A stretch of 64,000 nt of DNA from a virus. Its lineage: Duplodnaviria > Heunggongvirae > Uroviricota > Caudoviricetes. The DNA is taken from IMG/VR virus record IMGVR_UViG_3300045988_161152. The stretch is one strand, 5' to 3'. The notes beneath the pieces are model-generated. The model was given only the letters and a program-made list of their open reading frames with translations. It was not told where the DNA came from and did no database searches. The position numbers and the translations under genes are program-made. Position 1 is the first letter of the stretch. Every line of letters begins with the position of its first letter. This document shows, in pieces, positions 11,591 to 15,621 of the stretch.

Positions 11591-11776
11591 GTATTTTTAA
11601 GTCGCGAATGCTATCTTTTCACATCATATTGACCTTTTAATCGTTCAGGCTTATAGTGCCGCCGTCGTAGCAAATTCTGCGACCGGGTTTAGCAGCCTGA
11701 ATACTTACGCGGACAACCGCAGATTTCCGATATTGCGGTATTTTTGTGTCCGTAAACCACGTTACGCCCGAATTAT

Positions 11777-11853
11777 GGTGGGGCGTGATGGGGAGGCTTC
11801 GGCCTGCTGGTTTCGTAAGTGCCAGTCTGCTAACCCCGTCACGTCCTGCCACC
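11777..11853 (+). ncRNA. c4: c4-like antisense repressor RNA (candidate, 77 nt)
   Basis: Between operated promoter and icd; GGTGG...CCACC closing helix, internal GAGGC-UUCG-GCCUG hairpin, and AACCCCGTCACGTC segment partly complementary to the ant RBS region (GACGTTCAGGGGGG at 12101-12117); boundaries inferred. Confidence 0.4.
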
Positions 11854-11902
11854 TGTTTAGCAGCGGGTCGCAGGTTGTTTATCAACTTACGAGGCCGTAA
11901 CT

Positions 11903-12124
11903 ATGGTTAATGCCAATCCTTGCGCACGCCAAGAATTCATCTGGCGTTTCTATTCCTGTAAAAAACACCACTATCACTTCGTTATCGCAGCAACAGAAGA
12001 CGAAGCACGCTCTCAATTGCCTGACGGCCCCTGCATTTTTACTGCCCGTTTTTCAACTAACTCGCGCAATCCACTTAGTTACTGGAGCCTCCCCTTCTCT
12101 GCCGACGTTCAGGGGGGTTTATGA
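11903..12124 (+). CDS. icd: Icd-like cell-division interference protein
   Basis: 73-aa ORF directly upstream of and overlapping (ATGA) the ant start, as in P1 immI. Confidence 0.65.
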   Translation: MVNANPCARQEFIWRFYSCKKHHYHFVIAATEDEARSQLPDGPCIFTARFSTNSRNPLSYWSLPFSADVQGGL

Positions 12125-13164
12125 AAAAACCTCTCGTCACCCGTAATGACATAGCCGAAGCGATCGCCCTGCATACTGCCTGTATGCCGACACGGGAGAT
12201 CCCCGGCGCAATTGCCAACTATTTCATGATAACCAGACGTTTTTATACCCGAACAGATAAGGCTGTGATCAACAAGCTACTGATAGCCGAGATCAGGGAT
12301 TATTTGATTGAACAAGGACGTCTACGTTACGCAACAGTGGCAGCAGAAATGAGAAAGGAGGCACATAGAATGACCGGTAATAATTTGAATGTTGAAAAAA
12401 CAGCACCTGTTACGTCAGCTACGCCAGCACCAGCCGTGAATATCATCCCCAACACCGGAGACACAATCGACAGCCTGACACTGTTAAAGATGGTCAATGA
12501 AGCGCGTAAGTTATGTGGGGAACCAGAGGTTCGGAACAACAAATTCATCGAAAAAATACTCGACGAATTAGAAGGTGAGGACGGTTACACAAAAAGTGCA
12601 ACCGTGCCGCCAGGTGGCGGTACGCCTATGGTTGTCATAACCATGACCTACAAACAAGCCCTGCGAGTCGCCGCACGCGAATCAAAAGCCGTCCGCCGTT
12701 CGCTGATCGACAAACTGGAAGAATTGCAGCAGGCAAACTCCCCTACCCCATCGATCCCCCAAACATTACCAGAAGCTCTACGCCTGGCTGCCGAGTTAGC
12801 AGAACAGAAAATGCAGCTGGAACAACAGCTGGTGGCCGCTGCCCCTAAAGTCGATTTTGCCGACCGGGTATCAGTGGCTAATGGAATCCTGATCGGGAAC
12901 TTTGCAAAGGTCGTTGGACTTAAGCAAAACGCCCTTTTCTCATGGTTGCGCCAGAACGGCATTCTCATGGCTTTTGGTGCGCGCAAAAACGTACCGCGCC
13001 AGCAGTATATTAACGCCGGGTATTTCACAGTGAAAGAAGTGGTGCTGGATGATGAAAATGGCTACCAGATACGGCTGACGCCCCAATTAACGGGTAAAGG
13101 CCAGCAGTGGTTAACTCGCAAGCTACTTGATGCTGGTTTGTTAAAACCAGTAGCAATAGGTTAA
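12121..13164 (+). CDS. ant: antirepressor Ant
   Basis: 347-aa ORF after icd; C-terminal ~130 aa (LPEALRLAAELAEQK...GKGQQWL) shared with the downstream kilA-like ORF. Confidence 0.65.
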   Translation: MKKPLVTRNDIAEAIALHTACMPTREIPGAIANYFMITRRFYTRTDKAVINKLLIAEIRDYLIEQGRLRYATVAAEMRKEAHRMTGNNLNVEKTAPVTSATPAPAVNIIPNTGDTIDSLTLLKMVNEARKLCGEPEVRNNKFIEKILDELEGEDGYTKSATVPPGGGTPMVVITMTYKQALRVAARESKAVRRSLIDKLEELQQANSPTPSIPQTLPEALRLAAELAEQKMQLEQQLVAAAPKVDFADRVSVANGILIGNFAKVVGLKQNALFSWLRQNGILMAFGARKNVPRQQYINAGYFTVKEVVLDDENGYQIRLTPQLTGKGQQWLTRKLLDAGLLKPVAIG

Positions 13165-13170
13165 CAAAAG

Positions 13171-13200
13171 AAAAAAACCTGCCAGCAAACTGGCAGGTTT
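13171..13200 (+). terminator. intrinsic terminator after ant
   Basis: A-run, hairpin ACCTGCCAG-CAAA-CTGGCAGGT, then TTT. Confidence 0.6.
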
Positions 13201-13242
13201 CTGAGCAGATCGTCCAACCCGATCTGGATCGAGTCAGAAAAA

Positions 13243-13259
13243 TTTGCTCTAATAAATTT
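13243..13259 (+). promoter_or_regulatory. C1 operator-like site (tTTGCTCTAATAAATTT), Op53-like, upstream of kilA-repL
   Basis: 16/17 match to ATTGCTCTAATAAATTT. Confidence 0.6.
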
Positions 13260-13328
13260 CGTTTTCTAAGTGCAAAGAATCACCATTTCGAGCTGGTGAT
13301 TGAAGGTTGATGCAAATTTGGAGAAAAA

Positions 13329-14113
13329 ATGCAACAAACATTCAATGCGGATATGAATATATCAAACCTTCATCAAAATGTCGATCCTTCAACCACTCTG
13401 CCTGTTATTTGTGGTGTTGAAATTACGACCGACCGCGCTGGCCGTTACAACCTTAATGCTCTACACAGAGCGAGCGGACTCGGTGCCCATAAAGCGCCAG
13501 CTCAATGGCTAAGAACGCTGTCAGCCAAACAGCTCATCGAAGAGCTTGAAAAAGAAACTATGCAGAATTGCATAGTTTCGTTCGAAGGTTTGCCCATGAA
13601 TTGCTCGCAGTGGAGTACGCGGGCTGGATTTCTCCCGCGTTTCGGCTGAAGGTAAACCAGACATTTATCGACTATCGAGCCGGAAGATTACAACCTGCTA
13701 TTCCGAAGAGCCTCCCAGAAGCTCTCCGTTTGGCTGCTGACCTGGCAGAGCAAAAGCAACGGCTGGAGCAAAAAATGCTGATGGATGCACCTAAAGTCGA
13801 ATTCGCCGAACGCGTTGCTACCGCCAGCGGGGTTCTAATCGGCAACTATGCCAAAGTGCTCGGCCTGGGCCAAAACTATCTCTTCACCTGGTTGCGTGAT
13901 AACGGAATTCTGATCGCAACCGGTGAACGCAGGAACGTCCCCAAACAAGAATACATATCCCGTGGGTATTTCACCCTTAAAGAAACCGTGATCGATACAA
14001 GCAATGGAAGCAGGATTTCTTTCACGACTCGTATAACCGGCAAAGGTCAGCAGTGGCTGATGAAGCGATTGCTTGATGCTGGTGTGCTGGTACCTGTCGC
14101 GGCAACGCGCTAA
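13329..14113 (+). pseudogene. kilA: kilA-like gene split by an apparent frameshift (ORFs 13329..13649 and 13568..14113)
   Basis: First ORF is KilA-N-like (106 aa); second ORF in another frame carries the Ant-type C-terminal domain; the two frames overlap 13550-13649; combined length ~262 aa. Confidence 0.45.
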
Positions 14114-14142
14114 CAGACGTAGTAAGAACCACCAGCATTGTA

Positions 14143-14988
14143 ATGCTGGCTAAAGTCACTTTCCTGAGCTGTATAACGATGAGCGATTTTACTTTTTCTG
14201 GCTATGAATTGGCCTGCTTTGTAACACACTCCGGTCTATCCCGTAGCGCCGGGCATATCCTGTCGCAATGTGCAAATCTCGCGGCAACAACCAGTGAATA
14301 CTTCATTCACAAGCCTCACCGCCTGATCGCGGCAGAAACTGGTTATAGCCAATCAACCGTCGTTCGTGCATTCCGTGAAGCTGTAAACAAAGGAATTCTG
14401 TCTGTAGAGATTGTTATCGGCGATCACCGTGAACGTCGCGCTAACCTGTACCGGTTTACACCATCCTTTTTGGCCTTCGCACAACAAGCCAAAAATGCGC
14501 TGATTGAAAGCAAATTAAAGATCTCTTCAGCGGCAACCAAGGTTAAAGCTGTTCTCGCTAAGACATTGGCTTTATTTAATTTTTTATCCACACCCCCATG
14601 TCAAAATGATACCCCCTCCCCCTGTCAGGATGACGTGGCAATAAAGAATAAGAAGTCACAAGTTAAAAAAACAAAAAGATCAGTTTCCGGCGGTGCCGGA
14701 ACGACCAGACTCAAAAAATTGACTTCATGGATCGCTGAGGCAAAAGCAAAGGCTGACAATCTGCGGTTATCCAAAAAACGCGCTCAAAAACATGAGTTCA
14801 AGCAGAAAGTAGAGGCGGCAGCGCGGAAATATGCTTACCTGAAGGACAAGCGTTCTCCTGATATTGGCGGGATATCAAACTTCGATAATCTGCCGCATTG
14901 CATGACGGTAAACGAAGCTCTTAATGCGGTTTTAGCCAAAAATAAAGATAACGAACAATGGGGTATACCTGCAGGATTCAGAGGGTGA
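14143..14988 (+). CDS. repL: lytic replication initiator RepL
   Basis: 281-aa ORF downstream of kilA; RepL-like size and position (oriL expected inside). Confidence 0.65.
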   Translation: MLAKVTFLSCITMSDFTFSGYELACFVTHSGLSRSAGHILSQCANLAATTSEYFIHKPHRLIAAETGYSQSTVVRAFREAVNKGILSVEIVIGDHRERRANLYRFTPSFLAFAQQAKNALIESKLKISSAATKVKAVLAKTLALFNFLSTPPCQNDTPSPCQDDVAIKNKKSQVKKTKRSVSGGAGTTRLKKLTSWIAEAKAKADNLRLSKKRAQKHEFKQKVEAAARKYAYLKDKRSPDIGGISNFDNLPHCMTVNEALNAVLAKNKDNEQWGIPAGFRG

Positions 14989-15284: not shown

Positions 15285-15374
15285 TACAATCGTTGCGGGT
15301 GCTTGAGGCTATCTGCTTCAGGCATTACCCGAAAAGCAGATAGAAGAAAGCCCCAGATAACATTACGCGTCCTG

Positions 15375-15445
15375 CAAGACGCTTAACATTAATCTGAGGC
15401 CATATCTATGCTTAGCATACGTAGATTAGCCTCTTACCGACCAAA
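15375..15445 (-). ncRNA. sok: sok-like antisense RNA (predicted position only)
   Basis: By analogy with R1 hok/sok, antisense to the mok translation-initiation region; promoter and ends not resolved. Confidence 0.3.
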
Positions 15446-15614
15446 AGGTCAAGGAGAAGCAGGCTATGAAGCAGCAAAAAGCGATATTAATCGCTCTGAT
15501 CGTCATCTGTTTAACCGTCATTGTGACGGCACTGGTAACGAGGAAAGACCTCTGCGAGGTACGAATCCGAACCGGCCAGACGGAGGTCACTGTCTTCACA
15601 GCCTACGAATCTGA
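15408..15614 (+). CDS. mok: mok-like overlapping reading frame of a hok/sok-type locus
   Basis: 68-aa ORF overlapping hok out of frame and ending 7 nt before the hok stop, the mok arrangement. Confidence 0.55.
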   Translation: MLSIRRLASYRPKGQGEAGYEAAKSDINRSDRHLFNRHCDGTGNEERPLRGTNPNRPDGGHCLHSLRI

Positions 15615-15621
15615 AAGGTAA
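15466..15621 (+). CDS. hok: Hok/Gef-family type I toxin (51 aa)
   Basis: ATG 15466 with AGGAG SD; MKQQKAILIALIVICLTVIVTALVTRKDLCEVRIRTGQTEVTVFTAYESER; leader has 5' GGTGCTTGAGG (15298-15308) complementary to 3' CCTCAATGCACC (15669-15680), tac/fbi-like. Confidence 0.85.
   Translation: MKQQKAILIALIVICLTVIVTALVTRKDLCEVRIRTGQTEVTVFTAYESER

Follow-up and report, generated by a model that had tools for sequence, protein, structure and literature searches.

A natural 16-bp deletion disrupts kilA in one lineage of a P1-like plasmid prophage

The closest described system is the kilA region of phage P1, in which the annotated order is ant1/ant2, the promoter P53 (PkilA), the C1 operator Op53, the antisense promoter P53as, kilA and repL. 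P1 kilA (NC_005856, 49896..50696, 801 nt) encodes a protein of 266 aa (YP_006517.1, KILA_BPP1). Intact P1 KilA shows one KilA-N match at residues 27–123 (profile positions 5–106, 75.8 bits) and an ANT match at residues 152–254, and a search of the PDB with the intact KilA sequence gave no match. The intact gene is lethal to E. coli when expressed, and it is needed neither for lytic replication nor for plaque formation of P1 (PMC9948254). When kilA is knocked down by CRISPRi, the efficiency of plating is 0.86 (PMC10695390). The native ribosome-binding region of repL corresponds to the last 24–53 nt of kilA (PMC9948254), and the P1 origin oriL sits within repL. In P1-like phage-plasmids, kilA is also one of the 21 genes described as 'extremely conserved' (PMC9603915).

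The window (the whole stretch of 64,000 nt that was analysed) contains a counterpart of this region. When positions 13200–14250 were compared by megablast, P1, P7 and other punaviruses were matched at 97–98% nucleotide identity, and the same search recovered 512 records of plasmids and 520 of complete E. coli genomes (more than 1,000 P1-like records in all). The counterpart of P1 kilA is the segment 13329..14113, located between ant1/ant2 and repL and 3' of the C1-controlled P53/Op53. Identity to P1 is high along the whole gene, with 12 substitutions over 785 aligned nt. This level of identity and the preserved gene order indicate homology rather than a chance pattern, and by this comparison the segment is the ortholog of P1 kilA. 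In place of one unbroken 266-aa ORF it holds two ORFs (106 and 181 aa), and it is therefore classed as a pseudogene allele. The window also includes the P1 plasmid replicon, with repA, parA and parB identified from the annotation of the E. coli plasmid pDETEC74, and is thus a P1-like plasmid prophage. The gene neighbourhood runs c4 RNA, icd, ant1/2, kilA, repL and hok/sok, and the features around kilA are:

11651-11856: c4-a1b1 target and C4 RNA (Rfam)
11903-13164: icd and ant1, in a layout matching P1
12121..13164, plus strand: ant1/ant2 antirepressor gene, intact, with a C-terminal KilAC domain paralogous to the C-terminus of kilA
13225..13259, plus strand: P53 (PkilA) promoter and operator, with -35 TGGATC at 13225-13230 and -10 TCTAAT at 13248-13253; positions transferred from the P1 annotation
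13243-13259: C1 operator Op53/OrepL, TTTGCTCTAATAAATTT, overlapping the P53 promoter; position transferred from the P1 annotation
13356..13384, minus strand: P53as (PaskilA) antisense promoter, within kilA at its 5' end, ahead of the lesion
14143..14988, plus strand: repL, lytic replication initiator of 281 aa, second gene of the operon, intact

Both the promoter P53 and the C1 operator are intact. Compared with P1, the 171-nt upstream region differs at a single base (13232), which lies outside the operator and both hexamers. The antisense promoter P53as was recognized in a consensus scan as TCGACA-17-TATATT (10 of 12 matches), and its position agrees with the annotated PaskilA of P1. The length of repL is the same in the window, P1 and pDETEC74. 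The region downstream of repL contains a hok/sok-type toxin-antitoxin module at 15297-15621, consisting of an Rfam sok match (15297-15471, 114.9 bits) and a 51-aa Hok-like ORF (15466-15621). In P1 this position 3' of repL is instead occupied by rlfA/rlfB, while pDETEC74 is annotated with hokD there.

Alignment to P1 kilA and to the kilA of MH422554 places the sole lesion between window positions 13588 and 13589, where 16 bp, CCGTGGCGGCGGCACT, are deleted. The placement is unambiguous, and the junction reads GAAGG directly followed by TTTGCC. The last base of codon 87 and the whole of codons 88–92 (RGGGT) are lost, and these codons lie midway along the KilA-N domain, at its core. The gene is consequently divided into the following parts:

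13329..13649, plus strand: truncated kilA ORF1, 106 aa, with stop TGA at 13647-13649
13554..13579: perfect palindrome GAAACTATGCA-GAAT-TGCATAGTTTC in the kilA coding sequence, 26 bp with 11-bp arms and a 4-nt spacer
13568..14113, plus strand: ORF2, 181 aa, in the -1 frame relative to ORF1
13588..13589, plus strand: deletion junction, with kilA nt 261-276 missing
13589..14113, plus strand: rest of kilA in its native frame, with the end of KilA-N and a complete KilAC/ANT domain; stop TAA at 14111-14113
13765..14113, plus strand: candidate internal translation unit of 112 aa, with GGAG at 13765-13768, a 6-nt spacer and ATG at 13775

The first 87 residues of ORF1 (13329..13589) are native KilA, and the remaining 19 (residues 88–106) are an aberrant, out-of-frame sequence, LPMNCSQWSTRAGFLPRFG. 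The segment 13589..14113 carries no lesion beyond the deletion itself. The two ORFs overlap by 82 nt when counted from start to stop, or by 100 nt when counted from 13550, where the frame of ORF2 opens. The joined reading frame comprises 785 nt, and with the 16 nt put back it encodes 266 aa. A preliminary description of this DNA had recognized a kilA-like gene broken by a frameshift, with KilA-N and Ant-type parts in different frames overlapping by about 100 nt and a joined product of ~262 aa, the size of P1 KilA. This picture holds, and alignment to the intact gene further shows that the lesion is one 16-bp deletion and not a single-base indel. The same description considered the C-terminal domain to be a paralog of the Ant C-terminus, and the two indeed share 63% identity over 142 aa (KilA versus Ant1, E=3e-66).

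The domain matches follow the division of the gene. The KilA-N profile (PF04383) matches ORF1 at profile positions 5–57 of 107 (34.2 bits) and ORF2 at positions 76–106 (26.2 bits), the latter in a different frame, and no contiguous match covers most of the 107-position profile in the window. The ANT/KilAC profile (PF03374) matches ORF2 at positions 1–106 of 108 with 112.6 bits (cutoff 25.3, E=1.4e-32), so that this domain is present at full length.

The exact 106-aa product of ORF1 is recorded from NCBI, JGI, ENA and Logan, the longest contig being 92,373 bp. Three further carriers have the identical junction (ENA ERZ27293744 k109_8280, JGI 3300056500 Ga0250059_00220 and Logan SRR413706_1729), and these match the window at every position over 20.3, 20.3 and 12.1 kb, respectively. 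These observations bear on the possibility, raised in the preliminary description, that the frameshift is a sequencing or assembly artefact and that the true molecule has an intact kilA. The deletion allele is indeed missing from ~1,000 related complete records, and the site is 9 nt from a perfect palindrome where short-read assemblies often break. However, an NCBI record shares its junction with the Logan assembly of SRR413706, a JGI contig and an ENA contig of MEGAHIT style. Since several assemblies from distinct sample accessions and archives agree on the molecule, an error made once in assembly is ruled out. The loss of 16 bp from non-repetitive sequence is also not a typical platform error. 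Furthermore, the 64,000-nt window aligns to pDETEC74 (NZ_CP116091.1) in two blocks with 32 mismatches and one gap, which is the 16-bp deletion. With a single gap over 64 kb, the assembly of the window is not indel-prone. An artefact is extremely improbable in light of these comparisons, and the deletion is a real allele of one clonal lineage rather than an assembly error. As these three carriers are 100% identical to the window over 12–20 kb, they represent this single lineage and not a conserved arrangement.

The overlap of ~100 nt with the downstream frame at -1 has the geometry of many recoding sites, and the preliminary description had allowed for a programmed frameshift. A programmed -1 ribosomal frameshift, or another form of recoding, would rejoin both ORFs into one protein. 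However, none of the frames of the interval 13550-13649 contains a slippery heptamer of the form X_XXY_YYZ, and the one homopolymer run of at least 4 nt is AAAA at its very start. The arrangement of two ORFs is confined to sequences that are 100% identical to the window and is not seen across diverged homologs, thousands of which are single ORFs. In addition, a rejoined product would still be without the conserved RGGGT, since recoding cannot restore deleted residues. Programmed frameshifting was rejected because there is no slippery site, the homologs are single-ORF and five conserved codons are physically absent, and its remaining probability is negligible.

The palindrome at 13554-13579, also conserved in P1, ends 9 nt upstream of the deletion. 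Read on the minus strand, it precedes a run of T residues and scores as an intrinsic terminator. The alignments reveal no microhomology flanking the 16-bp deletion. A hairpin was rejected as the cause of the deletion, as the single-stranded DNA of the intact site folds at -6.6 kcal/mol (z = 0.66), no differently from shuffled sequences, and to give the palindrome a part in the deletion would be speculation. Among the 'partial' KilA fragments of public assemblies, many stop at aa 71–73 or start at aa 77, which suggests that short-read contigs tend to break at the palindrome. The idea that the palindrome makes this stretch a mutational hotspot at which kilA is inactivated time and again was considered and not adopted, because the N-terminal fragments come from a cluster that preselects similar lengths and their positions are therefore biased.

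The deletion allele is rare. None of the phage, plasmid and complete E. coli records (~1,000) contains the junction, and the top matches span 1,067 nt for a query of 1,051 nt. When a 91-nt junction query was compared by BLAST with complete E. coli genomes, all of the full-length matches (499/499) spanned 107 nt and are therefore intact. The exact 32-nt junction was found 0 times in each of the viral_contigs, genome_contigs and metagenome_contigs collections, which do not include the carriers; these were instead found by exact-protein look-up. In terms of contigs, the deletion allele is represented by 4–6, and the intact KilA of P1 and that of pDETEC74 by at least 1,000 each. In an evenly spaced sample of tblastn matches, kilA is in one piece over the whole protein, with no frameshift, in 46 of 48 plasmids. 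The 90%-identity cluster of intact KilA (266 aa) also lists RepL (281 aa), including as its representative, and this co-clustering is probably a database clustering artefact and not biology.

Based on the number of contigs that carry each common intact allele, plasmid prophages normally retain an intact kilA even though it is lethal when expressed. The preliminary description had argued from this lethality that inactivation in a plasmid-prophage is plausible. As a trend this rationale finds no support, given the counts above and the place of kilA among the most conserved genes (PMC9603915); moreover, the C1 operator that keeps kilA off in the lysogen is intact here. Disruptions do occur elsewhere. 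One of the two exceptions among the 48 plasmids (CP088832.1) has a 14-bp tandem duplication in kilA, and in the other (NZ_CP070295.1, from E. albertii) the C-terminal half of the gene is replaced. In addition, WP_273681679.1 reflects a frameshift that leaves the native sequence after aa 75, and WP_262930783.1 diverges from KilA after aa 80. Disruption of kilA is thus rare, and its recurrences involve lesions that are unrelated to one another.

Of the 12 substitutions that separate the window from P1 kilA, 10 are synonymous and 2 are non-synonymous, a ratio which indicates that purifying selection acted on the gene before the deletion arose. The nearest intact allele, that of MH422554 (the closest phage record), differs from the window by one synonymous SNP, and on this basis the deletion is recent. 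In the comparison with pDETEC74, 22 of the 32 SNPs cluster in 2.5 kb (35645-38100) and the remainder of the 64 kb is almost identical. By the annotation of pDETEC74 this interval contains a baseplate gene and neighbouring hypothetical genes beside dnaB, and it looks like a recombination patch.

Ribosomes that initiate at ATG 13329 would synthesize 87 native and 19 aberrant residues before the stop at 13649, yielding a product with approximately half a KilA-N domain and no KilAC. As half of KilA-N and all of KilAC would be missing, the domain architecture suggests that the host-killing function is most likely lost. Transcription from P53, repressed by C1, should still reach the intact repL with its own ribosome-binding region, and this region at the 3' end of kilA is untouched in the window. 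A stretch of 493 nt (13650-14142) is left untranslated by ribosomes from ATG 13329, with a possible polar effect on repL. The same stretch gives no clear signal of a Rho-utilisation-like C-rich, G-poor tract, and its GC skew is never below -0.16. Since kilA is dispensable and repL is intact, the phage-plasmid is probably viable and the deletion probably has little effect on the phage. A comparable arrangement exists in P1-derived cloning vectors, where the P1 DNA starts at kilA nt 300 (P1 50195), 24 nt beyond the deletion, and which reportedly have a working lytic replicon. Taken together, it is very probable that kilA of this P1-like plasmid prophage has been made a pseudogene by a recent 16-bp deletion, which is rare, neutral or nearly so, and confined to one clonal lineage.

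The portion of the gene that encodes KilAC raises the possibility of a split, partly functional gene, in which the N-terminal fragment is inert and KilAC alone is produced from ATG 13775 as an antirepressor-like or growth-inhibiting protein. No other in-frame start downstream has a Shine-Dalgarno-like element (here GGAG-6 nt-ATG, 13765-13777), and this ATG is the start picked by gene callers in three assemblies. The predicted 112-aa product matches the Pfam ANT profile at positions 6–106 (E=3.6e-32), and would comprise the whole KilAC domain; an identical 112-aa protein is annotated as KilA in the cloning vector pSacBII (AAA73431.1). However, every intact kilA gene has this GGAG-ATG as well, as plain coding sequence for Leu-Glu-Gln-Lys-Met, and the equivalent position of ant1 lacks it. 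E. coli also tolerates P1-derived cloning vectors that carry the same KilAC-coding fragment of kilA. The C-terminal ORF is free of secondary lesions, but this absence of decay is equally explained by a recent deletion. Such a product would be analogous to Ant2, the internal-start product of ant1, and the KilA-C domain of Gp07 from phage Phi11, over-expressed by itself, inhibits the growth of E. coli (PMC5944126). By analogy with Gp07, some residual activity from the undamaged KilAC part is conceivable. Overall, a split gene of this kind seems unlikely. It is very unlikely that the deletion unmasks a stand-alone 112-aa KilAC protein with continued action on the host or C1 repression; if true, the kilA of this lineage would be a natural 'domain-split' version with a changed phenotype, and not a dead gene.

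With a pseudogene as the preferred reading, both ORFs are best annotated as one kilA pseudogene, and not as a 'KilA-N protein' and an 'antirepressor'. The window also represents a natural kilA-null P1-like plasmid, which together with the near-identical, intact pDETEC74 forms a pair for asking what KilA contributes. The survey additionally provides population data showing that kilA is usually intact in plasmid prophages despite its lethality on expression.

Compared with known systems, the locus shares with P1 kilA its position, promoter, operator, antisense promoter and its neighbours ant1/2 and repL. P1 kilA has nt 261-276, whereas the window is without these 16 bp and as a result has no 266-aa ORF, a KilA-N domain that is cut and a KilAC domain that is out of frame. 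The nearest relatives, pDETEC74 (kilA WP_001187871.1) and MH422554, both have a full-length kilA with the 16 bp. Ant1/Ant2 of P1 have a KilAC/ANT C-terminus that is paralogous to that of KilA, but they differ in the N-terminal part, which has no KilA-N match, and in their regulation by the C4 antisense RNA; they are intact in the window. In the other natural kilA lesions of P1-like plasmids the same gene has been hit independently, although the position and type of the mutation differ and none has the junction found here. Cloning vectors such as pSacBII/pAd10sacBII and pCYPAC6 are similarly without a functional 5' part of kilA and keep the KilAC part and repL. In these vectors, however, the truncation was engineered at nt 300 and a foreign promoter is used, whereas the window has a natural deletion with the 5' part and P53 still present. 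The event described here is an ordinary breakage of a known gene.
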